A DNA stretch of 64,000 nt from Candidatus Uhrbacteria bacterium (GTDB lineage Bacteria; Patescibacteriota; Patescibacteriia; JACQRZ01): the NCBI GenBank assembly GCA_016206155.1, contig JACQSC010000004.1, forward strand, positions 75,699-139,698. The letters run 5' to 3'. A program made the translations under genes and the position numbers. Numbering within the stretch: position 1 is the first letter of the stretch; each line of letters opens with the position of its first letter. The notes beneath the pieces were generated by a model, which had not been told where the DNA came from, did not search any database, and saw nothing but the letters and a program-made list of their open reading frames with translations. Below, in pieces: positions 31,377-53,821 of the stretch.

Positions 31377-33047
31377 TTATGATTGCGCACCGTTACAGCG
31401 CAACCAGGCACCTGCTTGACGCCTTGTCTTTATTCTCCCCGATAGCTGTTCTTCGCGCAACAGTTCTCGCAGTTCGCCGACGCGCGGACCCGGTTTAATG
31501 GCGCATATTCGCATAATCGCATCCCCGTCAAGCAGTGGCGGAGGAAGCGCGTGCTTGCGCAGGGTAAGGTTGTGCTGTTTTTCAAACGCGTGGCGCCGCT
31601 TCTTAAAAGCATAATATCCTTGAATGCCGACCCTCCCGCTTTCCTGAATCGAGGCAGACGAATCGCAAAAAACAAGACGCTGAAGCAGAGCTCCGCGGCG
31701 AGGATCATCATAAAAATACTTTTCAATCGTCCGGCTCCGCAGTTTATCAACGGTCGTCGTGAGAACAAGGAGGTGATTGCGCACGAGCCATGCAAGATCA
31801 TCGGCTGTTCCGTCAAACTCCGCGGCAGATGCCAAACGCAAACGATCTGCAACATGCCGCGCAATCTCCGCGCCTGCGCGATCGTGGCCATGCGTGCGGA
31901 TCCTGTCCGTCCCGTGCGTTTCTGGCGTTTGGAGCGTGGAGGGCTTGCCCGCATCATGAAACAACACCGCGAATGTAAGGAGCGCTGAATTGTTTTTCTC
32001 GCCAAACTCATTGGCGAATTTCTTACCCGCCAATACTGAGAGGGCCAGCCGCGTGTGCGTCCACACATCGCCCTCGCTGTGCCACCGCTTCTCCTGCGGG
32101 CATCCCTTCATTGTCAGCAATTCGGGAATGAGCAATTTGATAATGCCAAGATCGTCATACATATCTAACGCGCGGACAGGATCGGCAACAAACGTCTTTA
32201 CTATTTCCCTTGCGATGATCTCATAGGCAACAACACGCATGGTATTGCGATCTATTTTTTTTGTCAGCCGTTTTTCCGGAGCCATTTCTTTGTTGAGAAA
32301 TTTCGCCTTCTTCCTGATTACCTCAAGCGTCTCCTGCTCAATTTGAAATCCCAGTTGGCACGCAAAGCGCACTGCCCGGAGTATGCGCGAATAATCCTCG
32401 GCAAAGCGCGCCTGTGGTTTTCCAACCGTACGAATAATTTTTTTCTTTATGTCGGCAACCCCGCCGAACGGATCGATAACTTCCCTCGTTTTCAGATTTA
32501 GCGCAAGGGCATTGATGGTAAAGTCGCGCCGCGAAAGATCTTCTTCAATTGGAAGGCGGTGATCGGTCTTGATTTGAAAATCGCGATAGTGGCCGGTGCC
32601 GGCATCGGTGTGCTCGGTACGCGGAAGCGCAATATCGAAAACGGGGTCTGGCTCTGGTGGGGTCTGGCTCAATTTCGCGAAGCGAATTTGTGCCTGACCC
32701 CGTTCTGTGCCAGACCCCATTTTTGACATTTTTGGCAGAAACTTGAGAATGCCGAACTTTTTGCCGACCAAGCGCACGGTTCCATGTTTTTTGAAAAATC
32801 GCAAAAGCGCAGTAATCGGCACATTGCGTACGACAAAATCATAATCCTTTGTTGGCCGCGAGAGCAGCATATCGCGTACCGCACCGCCAACGAGAAATAC
32901 CTCTGCCAAAGGAAATTCCCTGCAAAGCGCTCTTACGAATCCAAACTGTGGATTACGTAATAGGGGCATTGTTTTTTTCTTTTGTGAAAAGGTTTTTTTC
33001 ATGCCATTGATGCCTTGACAAAAAGTTGCGTGATTAGGTTCATTCAT
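31377..33047 (-). CDS. cca: tRNA nucleotidyltransferase (CCA-adding enzyme) / poly(A) polymerase family with HD domain
   Basis: GGAVRD...DxD polymerase-beta head, RRDFTINAL and an HD motif LFHDAGK. Carries an in-frame insertion of a palindromic element (32643-32718). Confidence 0.75.
   Translation of the reverse strand: MNEPNHATFCQGINGMKKTFSQKKKTMPLLRNPQFGFVRALCREFPLAEVFLVGGAVRDMLLSRPTKDYDFVVRNVPITALLRFFKKHGTVRLVGKKFGILKFLPKMSKMGSGTERGQAQIRFAKLSQTPPEPDPVFDIALPRTEHTDAGTGHYRDFQIKTDHRLPIEEDLSRRDFTINALALNLKTREVIDPFGGVADIKKKIIRTVGKPQARFAEDYSRILRAVRFACQLGFQIEQETLEVIRKKAKFLNKEMAPEKRLTKKIDRNTMRVVAYEIIAREIVKTFVADPVRALDMYDDLGIIKLLIPELLTMKGCPQEKRWHSEGDVWTHTRLALSVLAGKKFANEFGEKNNSALLTFAVLFHDAGKPSTLQTPETHGTDRIRTHGHDRAGAEIARHVADRLRLASAAEFDGTADDLAWLVRNHLLVLTTTVDKLRSRTIEKYFYDDPRRGALLQRLVFCDSSASIQESGRVGIQGYYAFKKRRHAFEKQHNLTLRKHALPPPLLDGDAIMRICAIKPGPRVGELRELLREEQLSGRIKTRRQAGAWLRCNGAQS
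32643..32718. repeat. GGGGTCTGGCTCA...TGTGCCTGACCCC palindromic element inserted in-frame in the cca coding sequence
   Basis: Two left arms, a core palindrome AATTTCGCGAAGCGAATT, a right arm and an inverted left arm. Encodes KMGSGTERGQAQIRFAKLSQTPPEPDP. Confidence 0.65.
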
Positions 33048-34019
33048 TCTATACTGTTATAAGAACCTTTACAACGATTAACATCCTGGGCCGAGCGGCG
33101 CAGAGCGTCTTACGAGAGTAGGATGTTCACGCCGCTTGACCCCAGCCCCTCTCGGCTGAAGAGCGAGCCGCCCCCCGCGGCTCGCTCTCAAAAGCTTAAC
33201 GACGACATGGAGACCGGTCGTGGCTCACCCACGGCTCGAGAGAGACCTTAGAAGGTTCCTCGCCCTTCCGCTATGGAAGGTGGGTAGAAATGTCTCGGGA
33301 GAGAAGAGGGGGAGTGACCGCGCGAACACAGCGCCGCGGTCCCGAAAGGTGCTTCAGAGAAACAAGTTTTTTTGAAGCCTCCCTCCTCTTCCCGCCGAAA
33401 GTCGGGGTCCTCGGCTTGAGGTTCGATGAATATCGGACTTCGCTCTGAGTTGATCTCGCACCCCCCTAAACGGCCCTCTTGTTTTGTAAAACAAGCTGGG
33501 CTGTTTTTCATTTTTATATTTTTTTACACAGCTTATACACAAGCAACGCACAGCCCATCACCAGCTTTTCACCATACTTATCATCAGAACTGTGAACAAA
33601 CACCTCCTTGAAATAAAATAAAAAACAGGTAACATTGATGCCACTGCTCCGGGGGAAAAATGCCTCCCGTTCCTCTCTTGGTGGGAGGGAACGCCACGCA
33701 TTCACATTAAGGAGCTCCACGGAGCTTCAGCAGATGCGTGGATAAAGGAGACACCCCCACAGGGCACGCCCTCCAATGGAGGGGTGGGGCAGGGCGCGCC
33801 GACAACGGCGACAATTATCCAAGCGACGCTTGTTCGCGCGCCCGCCCCTCGATTTCGAGGGCGCTTGAACGTACTCCGTTCGCGCCCTCAACTCTTTTCA
33901 AAATAGGATATTTGTGCTATCATAATATATAGGTATGCTGAAGTGCATGCTATGGTTTTTGTTATGTTTGCACGCATGGCTCAGTTCGTTATCAACCTTA
34001 AATTGATTCTCCTTTCTAT

Positions 34020-34096
34020 GGGCGGCTAGCTCAGTTGGTTAGAGCGTCACATTGACATTGTGAAGGTCACAGGTTCGAGTCCTGTGTCGCCCACCA
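34020..34096 (+). tRNA. tRNA-Val, anticodon GAC, CCA encoded
   Basis: Acceptor GGGCGGC/GTCGCCC, anticodon loop UUGACAU, T arm ACAGGTTCGAGTCCTGT. Confidence 0.85.
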
Positions 34097-34103
34097 TTTT
34101 CCA

Positions 34104-34176
34104 GGGCCGGTAGTTCACCTGGTAGAACGCCTCGTTTGCAACGAGGAGGTAAGCGGTTCGAGTCCGCTCCGGTCCA
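34104..34176 (+). tRNA. tRNA-Ala, anticodon UGC, no encoded CCA
   Basis: G3:U70 pair, anticodon loop UUUGCAA, T arm AGCGGTTCGAGTCCGCT. Confidence 0.85.
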
Positions 34177-34398
34177 AAATGAATGAAATGAATTTTTGAA
34201 CGGAAGAAGTATCCAGTGGATACTTCGGCGGACGAGAAGGGTTGCGACAACGGGAAGCAACCCCGGTGCCCGAGTCGGAGCGAGGGAGAGTCCCCGCACG
34301 AGGCGGGCAGGCGCTCCGGTCCAAAAAAATTTTTAATAAAAACATTGTGAAAACATTCTCGCGATGTTTTTTTTGTGCTATACTAAAAGAAGTTTAAA

Positions 34399-34440
34399 TT
34401 GCCGCGTTCCTGCCTACCGCAGGCAGGCACGGGAATGACA
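34399..34440. repeat. degenerate copy of the TGTCAT...GGGAATGACA hairpin family
   Basis: TTCCTGCCTACCGCAGGCAGGCACGGGAATGACA. Confidence 0.4.
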
Positions 34441-34465
34441 CATAACAAGGAAGGAGGTGAACGAC

Positions 34466-34570
34466 ATGCCAGCAAAAAAGAAAAAGGCGCCAGCAAAGAA
34501 AGCAGCGCCAAAGCGCAAAGCAGCAAAAAAAGCAGCGCCAAAGCGCAAAGCAGCAAAGAAAAGGAAATAA
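34466..34570 (+). CDS. 34-aa Lys/Ala/Pro-rich basic peptide (histone H1-tail-like)
   Basis: MPAKKKKAPAKKAAPKRKAAKKAAPKRKAAKKRK. Strong SD (AAGGAAGGAGGTG) 7 nt upstream, a tandem AAPKRKAAKK repeat, and an intrinsic terminator immediately after. Confidence 0.45.
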   Translation: MPAKKKKAPAKKAAPKRKAAKKAAPKRKAAKKRK

Positions 34571-34714: not shown

Positions 34715-36022
34715 TCACTCAAATAATTCTTTCTGCGCCTTCTTCTTTGCGTGTGTAACAGCGATGCGTCCATATTCACCATCATATCCAGGAATGATGT
34801 CCACGTTACCGGCACGCATGTTCTCTATCGCATGAGCAATATCTTCTCCAACGTTCATAGAAATTTCTTCGATCGCACAATTCAACAAAACATCAAATTC
34901 TGTACCACACCTGTTGATAACTTTTTTATACATCTCTTTCACTTTTTTTGATTGTATACCAACACCAAGCGTATGCGAGATGAGTTCTTGCAATGGAATG
35001 ATGTTGGTGAATGGTGTGCGAGAAATTTTTTTTATCTGTTGCTCGTCTTGATCGGCAAGATTCATAACGCGATTCAGTACGCCAACCGTTAATGGTTTTT
35101 TGCAGTGCGGGCAAATGCCATGGAGTTTTCTCGTTTGCGCAGGTTCGCAGGAAAATCCGCACAAACGATGTCCGTCCAGATGATACTTCCCCTCCTCTGG
35201 AAAAAATTCGATAGTAGAATCAAGCGACAATTCTGGCGTTTGGCGCACGCCTTCGCTTATTGAGCGAACAAGAGAGGCGTACGTCAGTGTATCGCCTGTA
35301 AACACCGTTGCCTCGCGGCCGAGTTTTTCAAGTGAGTGTGCGTCGGAGTTGGACACAAGCGCAATATCATTGAGCCCAGACAAACGCCAGTTCATGGCCG
35401 GATCTGATGAAAGCCCTGTTTCAATAGCGCGTATACGCGGAGTCAATTCGTCAAAACATTCCTCCAAAGAATCAAATCCGGAAAACGAACCGAATACCGA
35501 GAACCACGGCGTCCACGCGTGGGCGGGAATAAAAAAACAATCATCGGAAATATCAAGAATCATTCTCATGAGTTTTGTCACGTCGATTCCCAAGATGGGA
35601 CGGCCGTCTGATGCGATGTTGCCGATTTTGGAAAGTGCGCTGTTAATTTTTTCAACAACAGCAATGGTTGGCGCAAAGACAATGATATGAATGCGCCGAC
35701 CCTTTCCATTTTTTGAATAGATGCATGAGAGCTCGGTCGTGAGAATAAATTGCTGAGGCGCACGTACAAGAGCAGGAGAAAATTCCCCGGTAATATCATC
35801 GGCGATTTTTCGATATTCTTTTTTTAGTTCATACAAACCGTCTGATGTTTCTTCAAGTTTTTCTTTGAGTTCGCAAAACCACTGCGGATGCGTAAAATCC
35901 GCGCATGACACGACATTGATTCCCTTGATGCGCGACCACGCGGATATATGCTCAAGATCGAGACTCTTGCTGCACGCGCGCGAATACTTTGAGTGGATAT
36001 GAAAGTCGGCGATGTATTTCAT
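34715..36022 (-). CDS. PHP-domain protein with zinc-finger, endonuclease Q-like
   Basis: MKYIADFHIHSKYSRACS PHP N-terminus, a CPHCKKP zinc finger, 435 aa. Confidence 0.6.
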   Translation of the reverse strand: MKYIADFHIHSKYSRACSKSLDLEHISAWSRIKGINVVSCADFTHPQWFCELKEKLEETSDGLYELKKEYRKIADDITGEFSPALVRAPQQFILTTELSCIYSKNGKGRRIHIIVFAPTIAVVEKINSALSKIGNIASDGRPILGIDVTKLMRMILDISDDCFFIPAHAWTPWFSVFGSFSGFDSLEECFDELTPRIRAIETGLSSDPAMNWRLSGLNDIALVSNSDAHSLEKLGREATVFTGDTLTYASLVRSISEGVRQTPELSLDSTIEFFPEEGKYHLDGHRLCGFSCEPAQTRKLHGICPHCKKPLTVGVLNRVMNLADQDEQQIKKISRTPFTNIIPLQELISHTLGVGIQSKKVKEMYKKVINRCGTEFDVLLNCAIEEISMNVGEDIAHAIENMRAGNVDIIPGYDGEYGRIAVTHAKKKAQKELFE

Positions 36023-36222: not shown

Positions 36223-36603
36223 AGAGATAGACCCCATTATCATGGGGCGCATGTCTCTGGAGGGCTTCAGATTTTATCTGAAGCCCTGCATATACAAAAG
36301 TCCTTATTATGGTCGAGATATATCGATCTATTAGTACGGCTCGGCTCAAAATCTTGCGATCCTTACACCTGCCGCCTATCAACCTCGTAATCTCCGAGGA
36401 ATCTTATAACGAAACCTAATCTTGAAGACGGCTTCACGCTTAGATGCTTTCAGCGTTTATCCGTGCCGAACGTAGCTACCCAGCGGTGCTCTTGGTAGAA
36501 CAACTGGTACACTAGAGGTTCGTTCATTGAGGTCCTCTCGTACTATCAATGAGCCTTCTCAAGTTTCAACGCCCACGGTGGATAGGAGACCGAACTGTCT
36601 CAC

Positions 36604-36812
36604 GCATGTTAATCCTTCTGTTTCCAGATGGCATGGACTATATCTTCACCCTTCAAAAAAATTCGAAGGGGCCAACGTGTAGTCTCTACGGACCCCCCGA
36701 TGGATATCGGGGTTGCCTCGGTATTCCCTTTGCCTAATGCTTTAGGGTTCACCGATATAGTTGGTGCTAGAACGATATTACTATCGCCAAACGCCGTATC
36801 GCAGATTGCGAT
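36604..36812 (-). mobile_element. group I intron, ORF-less, at the 23S site equivalent to E. coli 2593 (GAACGUC^GUGAGACAG)
   Basis: Exon sequence resumes exactly across the gap. The intron carries GAGACUACACG and AAGAUAUAGUCC group I core elements. Confidence 0.65.
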
Positions 36813-36846
<34 letters not shown>

Positions 36847-36873
36847 TGGCGAACAGCCAAACCCTTGGGAGCT

Positions 36874-37620
36874 CATTTCTGTTTTCCCGCATTACTGCGG
36901 ATATCAGACTATACCTTCACCATGGCATACCATGTTACCATGGTTGCTATAGGTGCGAACCGTATGATAAAAATTAATTTTATCGCATGATAATCTCCAA
37001 AAAAACTATCAATTAGTCGTTACGGGAGCTTCATTCTTTGATCATTATCGCATAGTTCCTCCGTCGACTTTTGGATCGAACGTTGAACGACGATAATGTA
37101 TCCGCCAACCGCGCAATATCGTACAGATTTTTTTTAGAACGAATATCTCTCTGCAAAATTGATTGTGCGATCACAATCTGTTTTTTCTTGCAGCGAGAAT
37201 ATGGTGCAATCTGTTGAAGGAACATGATTATTTCTTTTTGATCTCTCGCGACCCATTCATAGGTAGTGCGATTTGATCTGATATAACCAATTCCTGTCAC
37301 TGGAACTAACCACTCAACATCGTGCTTATGATATTGGGTTATCTTTACCGTAATGCGCACTCGAAAACCAAAACGCTTTTCGGCGTGTTTTTCAAGTGTC
37401 GCCATGATGGCACCGTCGCCATCTAAAAAACCTGCGATATATGCTCGGTCGACTTGGGAAAGAAGCTTTCCCACGGTATTAACCTTCATATACTCTCATT
37501 ATACCTGGGACCTGCGAAGTTGCAAGCCACCCGTTATAATGGAACCATCGAAGGCCTTCACCGTTTTGGGCTCGTTTATTACTCCGACGTTTCCGTCGGA
37601 GAGAGAAGGTAAATGGTTTT
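36874..37620 (-). mobile_element. group I intron at about E. coli 2535 region (CCUGGGGGUGGAG^AGCUCCCAAGG) carrying a LAGLIDADG ORF
   Basis: Exon identity is interrupted for about 750 nt, and the interruption contains ORF 37031..37489. Confidence 0.55.
37031..37489 (-). CDS. LAGLIDADG homing endonuclease (intron-encoded)
   Basis: IAGFLDGDGA motif, 152 aa. Confidence 0.85.
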   Translation of the reverse strand: MKVNTVGKLLSQVDRAYIAGFLDGDGAIMATLEKHAEKRFGFRVRITVKITQYHKHDVEWLVPVTGIGYIRSNRTTYEWVARDQKEIIMFLQQIAPYSRCKKKQIVIAQSILQRDIRSKKNLYDIARLADTLSSFNVRSKSRRRNYAIMIKE

Positions 37621-37652
37621 CTCCACCCCCAGGATGCGATGAGCCGACATCG

Positions 37653-38447
37653 TACATTCTTCTATTATTACTAATAGTGTGGACTATATCTTCTTCCTGC
37701 TTTAATCCGTGCAGGAGATGGCGTATTAGCCCTTCTTACATATAAGGGCTCTGATCGTTTCCGATCAAGTCTCTACGGGGTCATTACTCAATTTTATACT
37801 TCATGGAAGGAATCACGAATTTCGCGACTATCCCCTTCAGCGTGCGCACGCTTTCTTTCATAAACCTCACTCGATAGTAGGTCTTATCTTTATTCAAGCG
37901 CGCGTTCAGTCCCATATCCTTCAAGAATGCCAGCAGGGAGCTCTGGTCTGTCGGGGTAAATTGTTGAGTGTTCAAATAGAAGTCTGAATCTCTACATTTA
38001 CTTCCGTCATCCATAAACCATACCGCCAAACTTAATGGATTGAGTGTAATTGTGGGTACAACTTTCTTCCCCTCTTTATAAAAGAGGTTATAGAACTTGG
38101 TAATCTCTGGATGCTGCCGTGTGGTGAAGCGATATGCGATTCTTGAATTATTTCCTCTCCTTATTTTAGGACCGCTGGTAGAAATATTTTTCAGTATACT
38201 GTATTTCCAGTCAACGTATTCCTTCTGTATATACGAGTGATTAATTTCAAGAAGTACGTTTCGCCTTCCTTTCACAATGCGAGCGTATCCATCGCCAAGC
38301 AATGTACCTACTATTACGGATTTCTGAACTTGAGTAAGACTTCCCACGATATTGTCCATATGAGTATAGTATACCATATGGAGTTCATCGTTATAAGCCA
38401 TATTTTTGGTATGACATTACTGTCATAGCACCCCGATTTCGTCGTTA
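37653..38447 (-). mobile_element. group I intron at about E. coli 2500 (GGCACCU^CGAUGUCGG) carrying a LAGLIDADG ORF
   Basis: Exon breaks bracket ORF 37784..38401. Confidence 0.6.
37784..38401 (-). CDS. LAGLIDADG homing endonuclease, double-motif
   Basis: VGTLLGDGY and LAVWFMDDGS motifs, 205 aa. Confidence 0.85.
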   Translation of the reverse strand: MAYNDELHMVYYTHMDNIVGSLTQVQKSVIVGTLLGDGYARIVKGRRNVLLEINHSYIQKEYVDWKYSILKNISTSGPKIRRGNNSRIAYRFTTRQHPEITKFYNLFYKEGKKVVPTITLNPLSLAVWFMDDGSKCRDSDFYLNTQQFTPTDQSSLLAFLKDMGLNARLNKDKTYYRVRFMKESVRTLKGIVAKFVIPSMKYKIE

Positions 38448-38496
38448 AGGTGCCGAACCTTGCCGTCGCTGTGGACGCTTGGGCAAGACTAGCCTG

Positions 38497-39351
38497 TTCG
38501 TATTTTTTCTCTTATTCCTAAGAGTACTGACTATATCTTCATCCTCACATCACTCATGTGAGGAGTACGGCGTATTGGCCCGATATACTTCGGGCCCTCG
38601 TCCATAATGGACTTCAGTCGATACGGGGTTCTTCATCGATTTTATATCGCATACTTTGTATCATATGCGGAGCGATAATAGTACTAAGTTTTTTTGTTTC
38701 TGCTACAGAAAATTTGAGATTCATTGATCCATTTTTCTTCTTTTCGAGTTTCGGATGAAGGTCAAAATTTTCTTGAATCGCCCGTAAGAGTCGCCGCGTA
38801 TCGCGATCAGTATGTTTTGAGAGATAGATATACGCGGTCTTGTCGCGTTTATAATAATATCCATCATCCATATACCATACCGCCAATACAAGCGAATCTT
38901 TTAACAATCGACTTATACTTTCTGGAATCTGCTTTGCATGATCCTGATAAAAGATCATCCGCAGCTTTCCAAATTCTGACGATGAGTGTGATTGGCATCG
39001 AATAGAATAATAGAATTTTTTCCATGTTGGATGAAAGCGCGTGAGGATGCTCGGCTTTTGCATAAACCGACGCAACTCAGAAACCTTCCAAAGAAGGTAA
39101 TCCTTTTGCTGAAGCGAATGCTCCAGTCGAAGGCGCGCACTCTTTGTGCCAACACGTTGAATAAATCCATCACCCAGTACACATCCAATCACTATGTTTC
39201 GTTCACGTTGTGTCATAGTAGTTCTTGACAACGATGAAGAACTTCCCTCGGTATTACCCGTCCGATTGTCATCGGGTTTGGGCTTCACCGATATCAGCCG
39301 TTTTCGTGATCGAGCGTTGCCGCTCGATCGGGACAACAACCCTTTAAGGGT
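38497..39351 (-). mobile_element. group I intron at the E. coli 2449-equivalent site (GGGGAUA^CAGGCU, the I-SceI/omega site) carrying a LAGLIDADG ORF
   Basis: Exon breaks bracket ORF 38614..39216. Confidence 0.6.
38614..39216 (-). CDS. LAGLIDADG homing endonuclease, double-motif
   Basis: IGCVLGDGF and LAVWYMDDGY motifs. The start was set at the Met preceding the first motif; the track N-terminal extension lies in intron RNA. Confidence 0.8.
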   Translation of the reverse strand: MTQRERNIVIGCVLGDGFIQRVGTKSARLRLEHSLQQKDYLLWKVSELRRFMQKPSILTRFHPTWKKFYYSIRCQSHSSSEFGKLRMIFYQDHAKQIPESISRLLKDSLVLAVWYMDDGYYYKRDKTAYIYLSKHTDRDTRRLLRAIQENFDLHPKLEKKKNGSMNLKFSVAETKKLSTIIAPHMIQSMRYKIDEEPRID

Positions 39352-39540
39352 CTATCCCCGGAGTAGCTTTTATCCGTTGAGCTTCGACCATCCTATAATG
39401 GATCGTCGGATCACTAACTTCCGCTTTCGCGACTGCGCGACTTGTAGGTCTTGCAGTAAAGCTGGCTTTTGCGTTTGCACGTCTGCTTCCGTTTCCATCG
39501 GAAGTAAGCCAACCTTTGTAAACGCCTCCGTTACCTTTTA

Positions 39541-40499
39541 GGCATTGTGTTAATCTAACCCTTTAAGTTTATACAGCATGGCTTGATGTATGTATGGTCG
39601 CACGATTCGAGCAAAATCGTCAGCCGATTCGGCAAGAATCATGATCTGTAATCCATCTGTTTGCTTCCTCGCATGCGAGGAAAGCGCATAGCGCGATTTC
39701 AATGCATTCATCAATCGTTCGATGTCCTTTGCGTGAAAGGACTGTGTATTCAGGATTCGCGCTCTGTGATGTTTTGACTTTACCGATCCGTCATCCATAT
39801 ACCATACTGCGAGAGCAAGCGGAGTCAGCCATCGATGAATCAGTTTTGGCACTTTCTTCACTCCGTTTTTCTCATAGTACTGATGCGCATAGAAACGCAA
39901 TGCGCCATGACTGACGGTAGAGAACCCGTAGTTTACACTTCGGATTCCTTCACGTTTTTTTATTTTTTCTCTTGGGAGTGTCAGGATCCATTTTCGAAAT
40001 TCATCATAGAGCCAATCGACATATTCCTTTTGTTTGATCGAGTGTTCGATCTTCAAACGATATGTTCGACCGTTATTTTGCGTCTCGAGATGACCATCCC
40101 CCAACAGGAGCCCAAATAAAATTTCTTTTTGCCGTTTTGTCAGTGCCAATTGTTTCTTCGCGTCTTCAATAGTTCGTGAATACATACATCATGTATTTAG
40201 TTAGATCCTCAATCTGCGTCATAGGCGGTTGGTATGACACGTTTCTCCATGTTCATCGGAGTGATTGAAGTCTCAAGGTTTCCCTTGAGATCAGACTCTA
40301 TCATTCCGGTATATGCTACCGGACCGACGTAGAGTCGTTGAGGAGTCCCATTCTTCTTAGAAAACGGGTTCCCTGCTGATTGTCTGCCGACGTATGTCTT
40401 CTTCAAAACATTTTTACTAAGCAGTAGTTTTGAATTTTTGCAGATGTTCCAGCATATAGTCGGTTTTCCTTCGATTACTCGAAGGGCCCCATTGCGTTA
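39541..40499 (-). mobile_element. group I intron at about E. coli 2263 (GGUCGCCU^UAAAAGGUAACGGAGG) carrying a LAGLIDADG ORF
   Basis: Exon breaks bracket ORF 39550..40185. Shares CUAUAUGCUGGAA and CAAUCAGCAGGGAA core segments with the 1917-site intron. Confidence 0.55.
39550..40185 (-). CDS. LAGLIDADG homing endonuclease, double-motif
   Basis: FGLLLGDGH and LAVWYMDDGS motifs, 211 aa. Confidence 0.85.
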   Translation of the reverse strand: MYSRTIEDAKKQLALTKRQKEILFGLLLGDGHLETQNNGRTYRLKIEHSIKQKEYVDWLYDEFRKWILTLPREKIKKREGIRSVNYGFSTVSHGALRFYAHQYYEKNGVKKVPKLIHRWLTPLALAVWYMDDGSVKSKHHRARILNTQSFHAKDIERLMNALKSRYALSSHARKQTDGLQIMILAESADDFARIVRPYIHQAMLYKLKGLD

Positions 40500-40786
40500 A
40501 GGCGACCGCCCCAGTCAAACTACCCACCAGATACTGTCTCCCTTGCGGATAACGCAAGTAGATCAAGAATTACAAATGCACAAGGGTGGTGTCTCATTGT
40601 TCCCTTGCGGGTCCCACCTACACTGAACAGGTGCATCCATAATCCAATATCAAGTTGTAGTAAAGCTTCACGGGGTCTTTTCGTCCAGCCGTGGGAAAAG
40701 AGCATCTTCACTCCTCTTGCAATTTCGCCGGGTCCCTTGTTAAGACAGTTATTTAGTTGTTATGCCATTCGTGCAGGTCGGAACTC

Positions 40787-41518
40787 CACAGTTCATCATG
40801 TTGCCATAATGGCAGACTATACATTCATCTTCCTGTCATCCGTAGGAGACTCTCCATTGTATATCGCCTCGCTCCAAGACCATTCATCTGATAGGCGCGT
40901 GTGATGATTATTTTTAAACCATCGCTCGTTCTGTGTTGCCGCTTCAATACATTGGCACAGATTGATCGCCATGTCTCAAAGTCATGATACTTTGATGAGC
41001 GAAGGGGATACTGTTCGAAGTGTGGAATAATCTTTTCACAAAGATCGTTAATGTTTCGAACTTCATATTTGTATGTTCCGTCGTGGATATTGAATCGGAT
41101 TGTCCCGCATCCAAAGAAGTCTTTGAGGTCATCAAGAACCACTTTACTTCTTTGGTGCTGACTAATCGTGAAGCTTGGACGCGTTTCGACGCCAAGAAGA
41201 AATTTTTTCCGTATCGAAAATGATACGAGAAAACTTCCTTCACCATCAACAAACCCTGAAACATACCATGGATTGAGCTCCATAGATTGACTTATTTACT
41301 TAGGAAGAGTCGGCGTGTTACCTCTGCTCATTGCAGAAGTCTTCTCTTTCGAGGCAGTCGTTACGGGGTCAAGTCCGATTGACATCGGACCGACTTCCCA
41401 CGGTATTATCCATATATTATATCATAGTATGGACTTCACCGTTATGAGCCGATTTACATGTATCGCGTCACCACGATACTCGGGCAAGTTCTCTCCGACC
41501 AAGGAGGAACATGTGTTC
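40787..41518 (-). mobile_element. group I intron at the E. coli 1931-equivalent site (GUCGGGU^AGUUCCGACC) carrying a LAGLIDADG ORF
   Basis: The exon stops after GUCGGGU and resumes at GUUCCGACCUGCACGAAUGG. 235 nt of intron separate the exon end from the ORF ATG. Confidence 0.65.
40825..41283 (-). CDS. LAGLIDADG homing endonuclease, single-motif I-CreI-like
   Basis: YVSGFVDGEGSF motif, 152 aa. Confidence 0.85.
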   Translation of the reverse strand: MELNPWYVSGFVDGEGSFLVSFSIRKKFLLGVETRPSFTISQHQRSKVVLDDLKDFFGCGTIRFNIHDGTYKYEVRNINDLCEKIIPHFEQYPLRSSKYHDFETWRSICANVLKRQHRTSDGLKIIITRAYQMNGLGARRYTMESLLRMTGR

Positions 41519-41539
41519 ACCCGACAAGGAATTTCGCTA

Positions 41540-41797
41540 GCCGCTTCCTTTGTGCGACGAACTCTCTCTTCACCCATTTATACTATCATTATAGCATAAA
41601 TGGGGCACGGCGTAGAGTTTCTGGAGGGTCCGATTGACGTCGGACTTCCCTGCTGATTGCCCAAGGCATTTGGGTTTCCAGCATATAGCCATGTTTTGAC
41701 CATTTCCATATTACTATGGAATGAGGCAGCTTTTTCTATTTACCCATTCACTATAACGGTCCCAGTCCTTCTCGATTCCACCATTGTGAAATCGAGA
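41540..41797 (-). mobile_element. group I intron, ORF-less, at the E. coli 1917-equivalent site (GGUCCUAAGGU^AGCGAAAUUCC)
   Basis: About 255 nt separate perfectly conserved exon flanks; no ORF inside. Confidence 0.6.
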
Positions 41798-43570
41798 ACC
41801 TTAGGACCCTTATAGTTAGGGCCGGCGTTCATCAGCGCTTCAGTTCAAAGCATTCCAGATAAATCCAGTCAACTTCTCCCTTTAACGTTCTGACACTGGC
41901 CAGGCATCAGCCCCTATACATAGCCTTTCGGCTTAGCAGAGACCTATGTTTTTGGTAAACAGTCACTAAATAAACGTTAGCTGCGCCCGGCCTAAAGGCC
42001 GGGGAGGCATATCCCGAAGTTACGCCTAGCTTTTTTGCCGAGTTCCTAAACAAGGGTTCTCCCGTACACCTGAGTATACTCAACCCGTCCACCTGTGTCG
42101 GTTTGCGGTACGAGTGCTCACCAGTTAACTCGTGGGGTGCAGGAACTAATCCAGTATCGTTTGAGCGATATTGTTCTGTGTCCATATTCAAGGCGCGAGG
42201 AGCGACACGATGTAAATGCATCGTTAGCGATCTCGCAACACAGAATATGGCACAGAACAAATCGCCCGAAGGGAGACTAAAAAATGGCCGATTTTTTTGT
42301 TGCTCCTCCTCGAAGTACTACTCAGTACTCCTTTGTCGTCGCGCCTCGAAATCGTCTCATTTTTTAGCCTCTCAAGACAATGCTGGATTAGTTCCTGCAC
42401 CCCTGGGCTTTTCTAGGCTTCTCCGTCTCCCGGCTTGCAGAATATCGCTATTCCGCTCGATCCCATACCTTACGATATGGTCTGCGCGTATAACCAAAAC
42501 ACGCCCGGAACGTGGAAAAGCGTCCCCCATCGAAACTGATGAGCAGTTCAGGAATATTAACCTGATATCCATCGGCTACCCCTCATTAATCAAGGACTCA
42601 CCTTAGGATCGACTAACCCTGGGTCGATTTGCGTTGCCCAGGAATCCTTGGACTTTCGGTGTTGAAGGTTTTCACTTCAATTTTTGCTACTTATGCCAAC
42701 ATTCGCACTTCTGTACGCTCCACCATTTTTCACAAAACAGCTTCATCGCCTACAGAACGTTCCTCTACCGCCCAGGCCTAAAGGCCTGGGCCCATATCTT
42801 CGGTACCACGTTTGAGCCCCGATATATTTTCGGCGCGCGGCAACTGGACCAGTGAGCTATTACGCTTTCTTTAAATGATGGCTGCCTCTAAGCCAACATC
42901 CTGGTTGTATAAGTCGCGACACCACCTTTTACACTTAACGTGGATTTAGGGACCTTAGATGATGATCTGGGCTGTTCCCCTTTAGACGGACGGACCTTAG
43001 CGCCCATCGTCTGACTCCCGCTGTATAGCATTTCCAGTATTCGGAGTTTGGTTGGGGGCGGCAGGATTTCTCCACCCGACCCCATTCAGTGCTCTACCCC
43101 TGGATGCCACAACGAGGCTAGTCCAAAAACTATTTCGAGGAAAACAAGCTATTACCGAGTTCGATTGGAATTTCTCCCCTAACCTCAGCTCATCCCCATG
43201 CGTTGCACGACATGTGGGTTCGGGCCTCCTCCGACCTTTCGGACGGACTCACCCTGGCCAAGGCTAGCTCACCCGGTTTCGTGTCTTGTGCATGCTGCTT
43301 CTTGAGGGTGTAGGGTTCAGGGGTCAGGGTTTAGATTGCGGTGACCGCAACCCTCTACCCTTTACCCTAAACCCTTTACCCTCAAATGCGCCCCATTCAG
43401 ACTCGGTTTCCCTTCGCTTCCTCCGCTTCATGCGGATTAAACTTGCAACATACAGCAAACTCGTTGGCTCATTCTTCAATAGGAACGCCGTCACCCCCGG
43501 ATTACTCCGAAAGCTCCGACTCCTTGTAAGCACACGGTTTCAGATACTATTTCATCGGCCTCCCGGCCTG

Positions 43571-43610
<40 letters not shown>

Positions 43611-44637
43611 GTCAAAAGTGTTTAGCCTTACCAGATAGTCCTGGCGGATTCCCGCTCGCTTTCACGAGGCGCGCGGTACTTGGGAACACATACGACAGAT
43701 TGGAAGATTGTTTTTGCATACGGGGCTTTCACCCTCTTTGGCAGGCCTTCCCAGACCTTTCTCCTAACAATCCGCCGCTCTGCATGGTTGGATCAGCAAC
43801 CACATATATGCGTCCCGCTACCCCAAAAAAACCTATAGCCCGATCGCCTTCCCTCACAACTTGAAATCTTCCTTGCGGAAAAAACCTTATCATGAGTTAG
43901 AGTTTTCTTGGTTTTGGCTCTTCCCTTTTCGCTCGCCACTACTCGGGGAATAAACTCTTGTTCTCTTTTCCTCCGGCTACTGAGATGTTTCACTTCACCG
44001 GGTTGTCCCCCCGACGTACGTCGGGGTACCACGATCTTCCATCGTGGTGGGTTTCCCCATTCGGAAATCCTCGGATCACAGGTTGCTTGCCACCTTCCCG
44101 AGGCTTATCGCAGGCTGCTACGTCCTTCATCGTCTTTTGACGCCAAGGCATCCTCCGTGTGCCCTTAACTATATCTCGACCATAATCAAGACTTTTGCTC
44201 ATATCCGCCGCGCAAATACGGCAGTATGAACGTGTATACGTTTGAACTATGCTCTTTTCGTTTACTTTCTATTCAATTCAATTGTCAATGTGCGCTCTCT
44301 TTTTTAAGGAGAGTGGCGGGGGATTGAGCCTTTCTATCTCCCGTCACCATCCTCAAGCGTCAATTTTTTCTAAAGACAACAAAAAAACCGCCGGTAAGCG
44401 GTCTCATGAGGCGATTAGTCGTCTCGTTCAAGGCCCCTTACGTGTGCTTCTTTTTACTTTGTAGCAATCGAAACATTCGTTTTTAAGAGAAAATCGTTGA
44501 ACGAGACTGATGCGTCTCTCCTTGTTATTAAAACAAGTATTGCCATTATAGATGATAATAAAGGGATGTCAAGCCCCTATTTATAGGAAAAAATTTCCTC
44601 TGCTGTGCATGAAATGGGGATATTTTGGGGAAAAATA

Positions 44638-53349: not shown

Positions 53350-53380
53350 CAAAAGAGCTCCGCGCGGAGCTCTTTCATAT

Positions 53381-53512
53381 CAAGGAGATTGCCTGGCGAG
53401 CGCGCAGATTCTCGTTCGCATTACCGGGGTTGTTCCAGTTGACGTTGAGCTTGCCGTCACTGTTCGTGTTCACGTTCGGAACATTACCGTCGCTATTGCG
53501 CGACCCAGCACA
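53381..53512 (-). repeat. DGR template repeat (TR)
   Basis: 132 nt matching the VR except at 21 positions. On the minus strand every differing TR base is an adenine. In the VR frame it is rich in AAC/AAT codons. Confidence 0.85.
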
Positions 53513-53741
53513 TGATGCATGATTCCATCCGCTATCACCGGCTGTTCTTTTTCAAAAACACCTGTGTTCTCCAAACATCTGTCTGGATTTTTTTACAAAG
53601 CATCGCGAGTTTTGTGCTCGCAAACCTTCCGTAAAATCATGCACGCAGTTTCCTTGATAACCGTAGGGCAAATCGCTATCCTGGATTGGACCGATTGTAT
53701 AAGCCATAGTGTAATGGTATACAAGCAAGAATAAAAAGCAA

Positions 53742-53769
53742 GAGACCCGAGCGTAAAACGTCGGGTCTC
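53742..53769 (-). other. GC-rich hairpin 3' of the VR (DGR hairpin/cruciform candidate), followed by a second hairpin at about 53777-53808
   Basis: GAGACCCGACGTTTTACGCTCGGGTCTC, about 55 nt beyond the target stop. Confidence 0.5.
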
Positions 53770-53821
53770 GATAGAAGTTCTTGCGCTCGCCTCCACGAAC
53801 GCAAGAAAAAAGGGGAAAGGG

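Follow-up and report, generated by a model that had tools for sequence, protein, structure and literature searches.

Between the gene for a CCA-adding enzyme and a pair of tRNA genes in a 64-kb window of Candidatus Uhrbacteria DNA (contig JACQSC010000004.1) lies a gap of nearly a kilobase, which probably houses two independent non-coding RNA (ncRNA) genes on the + strand, followed by the promoter and leader of the tRNA-Val/tRNA-Ala operon. We call them RNA gene 1 and RNA gene 2. By the window we mean the whole stretch of DNA that was analysed; all positions follow its numbering, and labels of the form L0xx denote loci of related Candidatus Uhrbacteria. A preliminary description, made from the window's letters alone, had seen in the gap one hairpin-dense region of about 950 nucleotides (nt) and suggested a single large ornate RNA of the GOLLD or ROOL type. 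The structured RNA has survived scrutiny. The single RNA has not: there are two predicted transcription units, each with a promoter-like site and an intrinsic terminator, before the tRNA promoter and leader begin. RNA gene 1 is the better characterized of the two and is a candidate for a new, narrowly distributed family of structured RNAs within the orphan bacterial ncRNAs.

With open reading frames (ORFs) of at least 90 amino acids (aa) and RNA genes masked, the gap runs from 33048 to 34019, a total of 972 nt. The second-largest gap in the window measures 488 nt, against a median of 72 nt, so this is indeed the largest non-coding stretch, as had been claimed. Its coding content is negligible. 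The longest ORF in any frame is 87 aa, and Pfam searches with eight of the ORFs present (51-87 aa, from a range of 42-87 aa) gave no credible match, the best having E = 0.22. The description of the region as GC-rich needed refining: it holds for two islands, 33060-33510 (57% GC) and 33641-33895 (62%; window mean 47.9%), and fails for the AT-rich spacers that follow each of them, at 33511-33640 (34%) and 33896-34019 (33%). The tRNAs have a GC content of 55-62%, like the islands and unlike the spacers. Both islands fold far better than dinucleotide-preserving shuffles of themselves. For 33060-33510 the + strand has a minimum free energy (MFE) of -213.7 kcal/mol and z = -8.7, with none of 100 shuffles as good, and the - strand has z = -3.5; for 33620-33900 the values are z = -6.1 on the + strand and -5.75 on the - strand. 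Since the shuffles preserve dinucleotides, composition alone does not explain scores of -8.7 and -6.1. No tandem repeats were found in the region, and a promoter scan called five promoter-like sites there when 1.4 +/- 1.1 were expected.

RNA gene 1 occupies about 449 nt (~33062-33509, +, 57% GC), as supported by folding, nhmmer homology and G-U pairs. A putative promoter region can be read from the sequence just upstream, at 33015-33055 (+): a CTTGACAA box at 33014-33021, a -35-like TTGCGT at 33026-33031, an 18-nt spacer and a -10 element, TATACT, at 33050-33055. The CTTGACAA box and TATAC(T/A) were found in nine of nine RNA gene 1 homologues. The consensus scanner does not call this site because its -35 element matches at only three of six positions; we infer nonetheless that TATACT marks the promoter of RNA gene 1. 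Facing the other way is the promoter of the CCA-adding enzyme gene (cca; 31377-32969, -), called by the scan as TTGTAA-17-TAGAAT at 33046-33074 (-) and called at the same site in L091. Its -10 element abuts and overlaps that of RNA gene 1 and its -35 element falls within the 5' leader of RNA gene 1. The 3' end of RNA gene 1 is an intrinsic terminator, visible in both the sequence and the MFE fold, in which a nested GC stem, AACGGCCC ... GGGCUGUU, precedes a U-run (33468-33509, +). The terminator recurs, with its stem bases changed, in all complete homologues; a simple terminator scanner misses it because the loop is longer than 8 nt. With a putative promoter and a Rho-independent terminator that are also kept in relatives, RNA gene 1, like RNA gene 2 below, has the make-up of an intrinsically terminated small RNA (sRNA) gene.

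What lies between the two is a succession of helices, all on the + strand. Close to the 5' end, AACATCCT (equivalently AACAUCCU) at 33080-33087 can pair with AGGATGTT (equivalently AGGAUGUU) at 33120-33127. The MFE fold of the window sequence uses another pairing, a hairpin at 33088-33142 with which this stem competes. In L083, L091, L088, L084 and L094 the counterpart of AACAUCCU sits at the same distance from the 5' end and has its partner 377-507 nt downstream; the stem in the window is the local version of the helix that closes a 377-507-nt domain in these relatives. A perfect 12-bp hairpin follows, AGAGCGAGCCGC-CCCCC-GCGGCUCGCUCU (inverted repeat I4; 33160-33171 / 33177-33188, its 3' arm also written GCGGCTCGCTCT), which is retained in L082, L091 and L092 with two of its pairs altered on both sides (RNAalifold columns 121-156). 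Next comes a four-way junction at 33204-33294, defined by MFE folds and a hand-built alignment. It is closed by H1a (33204-33208 / 33290-33294) and H1b (33213-33215 / 33283-33285), together with an A-rich strand, UAGAA. Within it are H2 (33216-33223 / 33229-33236), which has the loop CUCAC at 33224-33228 and contains the element CGTGG-CTCAC-CCACG at 33219-33233; H3 (33237-33262); and H4 (33264-33269 / 33275-33280). A second multi-helix junction at 33298-33396, identified as inverted repeat I6 and by MFE folds and RNAalifold, has the closing stem GGAGAGAAGAGGGGG / CCUCCUCUUCCCGCC and hairpins at 33316-33342, 33343-33350 and 33351-33379. The last part before the terminator is a 3' hairpin domain, GGUCCUCGGCUUGAGG ... 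CUGAGUUGAUCUCGCAC (33401-33459), defined by aligning 3' ends and among the few parts of RNA gene 1 still alignable with L083; blastn and nhmmer match 33434-33513 to L082, L083 and L091. The three stems quoted in the preliminary description all exist, one or two bases from the positions it implied. Two of them, AGAGCGAGCCG and CGTGG-CTCAC-CCACG, are conserved with compensatory changes. The third, AACATCCT/AGGATGTT, is the one that matches the relatives' long-range helix and is missing from the window's MFE fold.

Homologues of RNA gene 1 occur in eight distinct related Uhrbacteria loci, always at the same site and divergent from the CCA-adding enzyme gene. We reached these relatives through homologues of the CCA enzyme, and the resulting sequence set numbers nine. 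Searched with the RNA gene 1 of the window, nhmmer finds L082 (E = 1.7e-18), L092 (3e-17), L091 (3e-13), L094 (2e-8), L084 (7e-8) and L083 (4e-6); blastn picks up only the two ends of the gene, and nhmmer finds no second copy within the window. The neighbourhood is as constant as the site: a PHP/MJ0043_C protein, a small Lys-rich ORF, tRNA-Ala/Val, RNA gene 2 and RNA gene 1 and then, divergently, the CCA enzyme, an RluD-like synthase and L19, with 5S/23S rRNA genes also among the surrounding genes whose order is conserved. The length of the RNA is not constant. Homologues range from 449 to 884 nt, the window's copy being the shortest complete one. Longer homologues carry a module, 'CUGGUAAAC...CCCGACAAGGAGGAGGAGGGG-hairpin' (also written 'CUGGUAAAC...ACAAGGAGGAGGAGGGG'), and an extra 3' domain that starts AAAAGCUUGGAGC and includes a hairpin with an ACCGCCA loop. 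Neither the window copy nor L082 has this module or the extra 3' domain.

The domain that the relatives have in common consists of the closing stem H1a/H1b around hairpins H2-H4, with the second multi-helix junction after it. The base pairs of RNA gene 1 are kept through compensating mutations in these close relatives; the preliminary description had proposed looking for covariation at homologous loci, and there it is. Separate MFE folds draw the four-way junction alike in five of seven homologues, L082 and L084 deviating in one helix. The H2 loop reads CUCACC in five of the seven and GUCACC in a sixth, while the stem beneath it takes forms as different as GGUCGUGG/CCACGGCU, AGCCGC/GCGGCU, ACCGA/UCGGU, GGCUGUU/AACAGCU and ACCAGGG/CCCUGGU. 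In an alignment of the junction built by hand and fitted to the structure, whose percentages we therefore treat as an upper bound, canonical pairing holds in 189 of 190 cells and 31 of 38 pairs have changed on both sides, a count expected to be 15 +/- 2.4 from column shuffles and reached by none of 1000 of them; sliding the partners by one or two columns drops pairing to 35-43%. RNAalifold applied to the four closest sequences, aligned with MAFFT and not fitted to the structure, finds 69 pairs, of which 17 are compensatory, including pairs in the 12-bp hairpin, H2 and the second junction. MAFFT alignments of the more distant homologues are inconsistent with the structure. Eight G-U pairs in the covarying helices fit the + strand only and, with the orientation of the terminator and the asymmetry of the z-scores, they place RNA gene 1 on that strand. 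Covariation and conserved loops, together with promoters and terminators that persist in relatives and a GC content like that of tRNAs within a compact genome, are evidence for selection on structure.

RNA gene 2 is the smaller gene, about 255 nt at 62% GC (~33642-33899, +), recognized by its folding (z = -6.1) and by inverted repeat I2. The promoter scan places TTGAAA-16-TAACAT directly upstream (33608-33635, +), and equivalents are called in L091 (TTGACT-16-TAACAT) and L094 (TTGATT-16-TATACT) and can be read in L082, L083, L084 and L093. The gene is laid out on the + strand as a 5' domain, a long GC-rich hairpin at 33787-33848, and a terminator, GAGGGCGC / GCGCCCUC (33858-33865 / 33882-33889, +), which is followed by AACUCUUUUC. 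Positional counterparts of 192-486 nt are found in L082, L091, L088, L084, L093 and L094. They share a promoter of the form TTGAnn-16/17-TAnnnT, a long-range stem that closes the 5' domain, a long hairpin whose 5' arm is purine-rich and whose other arm is pyrimidine-rich, and a terminator hairpin with a CUCUUUUCAAA end. Sequence similarity among counterparts is detectable by nhmmer between some pairs only: L084 with L093 (2e-27) and L082 with L091 (4e-8). For both RNAs, terminator hairpins and U-runs can be read in all relatives, with the bases of the stems changed.

The tRNA genes begin 120 nt beyond the end of RNA gene 2, immediately downstream as had been stated: tRNA-Val(GAC) at 34020-34096 and tRNA-Ala(UGC) at 34104-34176, both on the + strand, called by ARAGORN and scoring 70.1 and 64.5 bits with the Rfam tRNA model. 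The promoter scan offers two promoters for this operon, TTTTCA-17-TATCAT and TTCAAA-18-CATAAT (33895-33926, +); the same tRNA-Val/Ala promoter is called in L091. In the leader, about 60 nt before tRNA-Val, a terminator scan picks out a hairpin, GGTATGC...GCATGCT, followed by a U-rich run (33932-33960, +). It is called terminator-like in the window, L091 and L094 and could be an attenuator or a processing signal. Two further complementarities caught our eye. A 10-nt inverted repeat (33039-33048 / 34178-34187) encloses the whole cassette, and the 5' arm of the 12-bp hairpin (33161-33173) is complementary at 12 of 13 positions to the 5' end of tRNA-Val(GAC) at 34020-34032 (inverted repeat I5). 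The flanking repeat is not kept in relatives and the tRNA-Val complementarity is not seen in L082 or L091, so we take both as chance; the likeness of the hairpin's 3' arm to the tRNA-Val 5' end is probably fortuitous as well.

One alternative is that these are known RNAs. Rfam 15 gave no match in the gap, either at the gathering threshold or, in a scan of 32900-34450, at E<=10, and none in the homologous regions of L082, L083, L084, L088 and L094 (at E<=1 or E<=10). Nothing relevant came from scanning the entire window at E<=1, and the matches obtained overall were confined to tRNA, rRNA and group I introns. Literature searches found no paper describing such structured ncRNAs in Uhrbacteria or the Candidate Phyla Radiation (CPR). 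We also considered TIGR-type guide arrays, to which repeated 'hairpin + UGGUA' units in relatives had pointed, and rejected them: there is no Tas or Nop-domain gene nearby and no regular repeat. The chance that the gap encodes one ornate RNA of some 950 nt, of the GOLLD or ROOL type, is next to nil. There is a resemblance. RNA gene 1 is hundreds of nucleotides long, folds into several junctions and adjoins tRNA genes, although such adjacency is not specific to these families. GOLLD, too, combines a variable half with a conserved half. Yet the covariance models for GOLLD, ROOL, OLE, HEARO and raiA match nothing here, whether at the gathering threshold or at E<=10, which refutes family membership, and no group II remnant was matched in the window or relatives either. 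The region is divided by a terminator within it, followed by the AT-rich spacer with its own promoter, and viral contigs hold no match to a motif that is conserved in the longer homologues and missing from the window copy. GOLLD and ROOL are often found in phage or prophage contexts. RNA gene 1, by contrast, is chromosomal, sits in a housekeeping setting rather than a prophage, is confined to one Uhrbacteria subclade and turns over its modules. A search with the tRNA-Val...tRNA-Ala pattern gave no match in viral contigs and, in metagenomes, only two contigs already in our set of relatives. OLE RNA offers another parallel, being a large (~600 nt) stand-alone structured ncRNA of the Bacillota that probably acts as a scaffold with OapA/B/C, as we suppose a protein-bound RNA gene 1 might. 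It is highly conserved in sequence and length, which RNA gene 1 is not, and there are no oap genes nearby.

It is also highly improbable that Rfam has simply missed housekeeping RNAs that have diverged in the CPR, RNA gene 1 being RNase P RNA and RNA gene 2 being 6S RNA or the RNA of the signal recognition particle (SRP). Diverged CPR RNase P RNAs of 350-800 nt, with extended or missing helices, are reported to fall below Rfam cut-offs, and 10 of 35 circular CPR genomes needed lowered thresholds for theirs to be found (PMC8172020). RNA gene 1 comes from the same group of organisms, has a comparable size and lies in a tRNA-related neighbourhood, with a CCA-adding enzyme on one side and tRNA genes on the other. 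The longer homologues contain GGUAA- and ACAAGG-type strings with a loose likeness to strings in the specificity domain of E. coli RNase P RNA, a likeness that does not amount to a test. Ranged against this, 1.1-1.5-kb stretches from three different homologues gave no Rfam match to RNase P (RF00010, RF00011), transfer-messenger RNA (tmRNA), SRP or 6S at E<=10, in scans that do not report matches below about 15 bits, where an extremely diverged RNase P could score. Motif searches that allowed mismatches, across the nine RNA gene 1 and seven RNA gene 2 sequences, agree. The CR-V part of the RNase P P4 helix (ACAGAA..CGGCUUA, like CR-I an E. coli string) has no match; CR-I (GGAAAGUCC) turns up only as isolated similar strings, with L093 showing GGAAAGCCC and the window GCCGAAAGUCGGGGU, the latter within a local tetraloop hairpin; and strings for CR-I, the tmRNA T-arm and SRP domain IV give isolated approximate matches that form no pattern. 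Nor do the ends of RNA gene 1 close in a P1 helix followed by the 3' strand of P4, as those of RNase P RNA do. ARAGORN and Rfam find no tmRNA in the window, neither RNA has a T-arm motif, and the window RNAs contain no GGAAGCAGCC-like SRP domain IV motif, all in keeping with the preliminary description, which had found no RNase P P4, tmRNA or SRP domain IV elements. The 6S comparison fares no better. Like 6S RNA, RNA gene 2 is a stand-alone sRNA gene of the abundant type with poorly conserved sequence and conserved structure, but the MFE folds of its homologues, inspected by eye, are branched into several hairpins over 192-486 nt rather than forming a ~180-nt rod with a closing stem, a large central bubble and a terminal loop, and there is no match to RF00013. 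Close relatives differ by the loss of domains hundreds of nucleotides long, and in L095 and L096 the locus is empty, neither of which is expected of an essential ribozyme.

That the region is a frameshifted pseudogene, or a set of genes for small proteins, we regard as extremely improbable. The 42-87-aa ORFs are there, and automated pipelines have called genes of 96-97 aa in the homologous regions of L082 and L084. The ORFs called in relatives, however, lie on opposite strands and belong to no Pfam family, the substitutions are compensatory within stems and not codon-like, and the short ORFs that follow an AUG in the AAGGAUGUU element are wholly different between relatives. The preliminary description had named the lack of an Rfam match, the lack of conservation in related genomes and signs of a pseudogene as what would tell against its structured RNA: Rfam is indeed silent, whereas related genomes conserve the RNA and no sign of a pseudogene has appeared.

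More serious is the proposal, unlikely as we judge it, that the GC-rich blocks are functionless or decaying DNA: remnants of insertions at a tRNA-linked hot spot, or transcribed spacer, with hairpins arising from composition and slippage. Several observations weigh against two functional RNA genes. Most of the four-way-junction domain is missing from L083 and L088. L082 and L091 are near-identical over their first ~430 nt (E = 1e-83), yet a block of ~330 nt is absent from L082. Neither RNA is present at the syntenic site in L095 or L096, two more distant Uhrbacteria whose CCA enzymes are 48-50% identical; in L095 the tRNAs abut the CCA gene. There are just nine homologous sequences of RNA gene 1, all from one narrow clade. 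The RNA gene 2 of the window shows no nhmmer similarity to any of its counterparts, even those of its nearest relatives, and is thus a positional and architectural homologue only. The -35 element of RNA gene 1 is weak, and its 5' leader overlaps the cca promoter, which could by itself explain why the leader is conserved. Finally, the best covariation count comes from the hand-fitted alignment, the 99.5% pairing of which is partly there by construction. Large module differences among close relatives argue that much of RNA gene 1 is only weakly constrained. Modular gain and loss, narrow distribution and the drift of RNA gene 2 lead to the same view; it is this weak constraint that keeps decaying or neutral DNA alive as an explanation and makes an essential ribozyme unlikely. 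Very fast turnover, with whole modules present or absent, speaks for decay, and copies of the tRNA-Ala 3' end together with a nearby GIY-YIG insertion mark the locus as prone to insertion. Against decay stand z-scores of -8.7 and -6.1 against dinucleotide-preserving shuffles, a four-way junction kept through 31 double-sided pair changes in sequences that can barely be aligned, loops such as CUCACC conserved while their stems vary, and promoters and terminators retained in every relative.

If two RNA genes are indeed what the gap contains, how might they work? Transcription of RNA gene 1 would start at a promoter set back-to-back with that of cca and end at the intrinsic terminator; as the -10 elements overlap, initiation at one of the two genes probably excludes initiation at the other. 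The transcript would fold into a 5' hairpin region, the 12-bp hairpin, the four-way junction with its CUCACC loop, the second junction and the 3' hairpin. RNA gene 2 would supply a second, faster-evolving structured RNA from its own promoter and terminator. We infer that transcription begins at the predicted sites and that both RNAs are stable in the cell, where they may act in trans. Our best guess, by analogy with OLE and other orphan RNAs, is that RNA gene 1 serves as a protein- or RNA-binding scaffold, in which conserved loops and junction strands would be the contact sites and the helices would be free to drift. A bolder version of this idea, which is possible and which we advance only tentatively, is that RNA gene 1 is the founder of an undescribed class of large (450-880 nt) modular, multi-junction ncRNAs, specific to the Uhrbacteria lineage, which would serve as a scaffold for ribonucleoprotein or RNA assembly and possibly touch tRNAs or the translation apparatus, with RNA gene 2 as a second, lineage-specific partner RNA. 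Its interchangeable modules would include the CUCACC-loop four-way junction, the UGGUAA-type junction strands and the GGAGGAGG hairpin; the UGGUAA-type strands could be T-loop or UAA/GAN-like tertiary motifs.

The surroundings of the cassette hold features of their own. Next to the tRNAs, the 3' end of tRNA-Ala, CGCTCCGGTCCAAAA (34165-34179), is repeated 147 nt downstream at 34312-34326 (direct repeat D4), where the second copy forms the end of a relic, GAGTCCCCGCACGAGGCGGGCAGGCGCTCCGGTCCA. The relic belongs, in L084 (7900-8420), to the 3' part of a tRNA-Ala(GGC)-like gene with an 18-nt insertion in its T-arm, the gene being interrupted by a GIY-YIG ORF and a complete tRNA-Ala(UGC). Two or three copies of the tRNA 3' end are present in L085, L086 and L088 (L088 2540-2720). 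The pattern suggests that a homing or integrating element has inserted repeatedly into a tRNA-Ala gene. Further along, at 34457-34570 (+), is a 37-aa Lys/Ala-rich ORF, MNDMPAKKKKAPAKKAAPKRKAAKKAAPKRKAAKKRK, with a strong Shine-Dalgarno sequence and a promoter-like site of its own; small ORFs of 47-48 aa are called at this position in L084 and L088. Its product could be a basic nucleic-acid-binding protein and, conceivably, a partner of the RNAs. Between the tRNA cluster and the 5S rRNA gene, a position conserved in relatives, is the 435-aa PHP/MJ0043_C-domain protein (34715-36022, -). Some PHP-domain proteins are RNases, RNase AM being an example, and by analogy this one may take part in rRNA or tRNA maturation.

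Elsewhere, the window holds ten tRNA genes and one 5S gene. Its 23S rRNA gene (36323-44175, -) spans ~7.8 kb on account of several group I introns, three of them above the Rfam gathering threshold and more below it; the introns of relatives carry LAGLIDADG ORFs. The window lacks a 16S rRNA gene, in keeping with a report that CPR rRNA genes are unlinked (PMC8172020). The 380-nt gap before tRNA-Val(UAC) contains a palindrome (24735-24873) whose two strands both match Rfam WsnRNA46, with scores below the gathering threshold (45.6 and 40.5 bits; E = 2e-6 and 6e-5). Three further unannotated gaps (471-958, 27775-28251 and 53350-53821) are 470-490 nt long, have GC fractions of 0.44-0.50 and match nothing in Rfam.

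CPR bacteria, or Patescibacteria, have tiny genomes with very little non-coding DNA, and it is therefore unlikely that some 1 kb kept for two structured RNAs is idle. Few large orphan structured RNAs are known, OLE, GOLLD, ROOL and raiA being examples, and each of them has proved biologically unusual. The family described here, if confirmed, would add a CPR-specific class to them. Because close relatives differ in the modules they carry, the family would also provide a natural series in which to find the indispensable parts of a large RNA.

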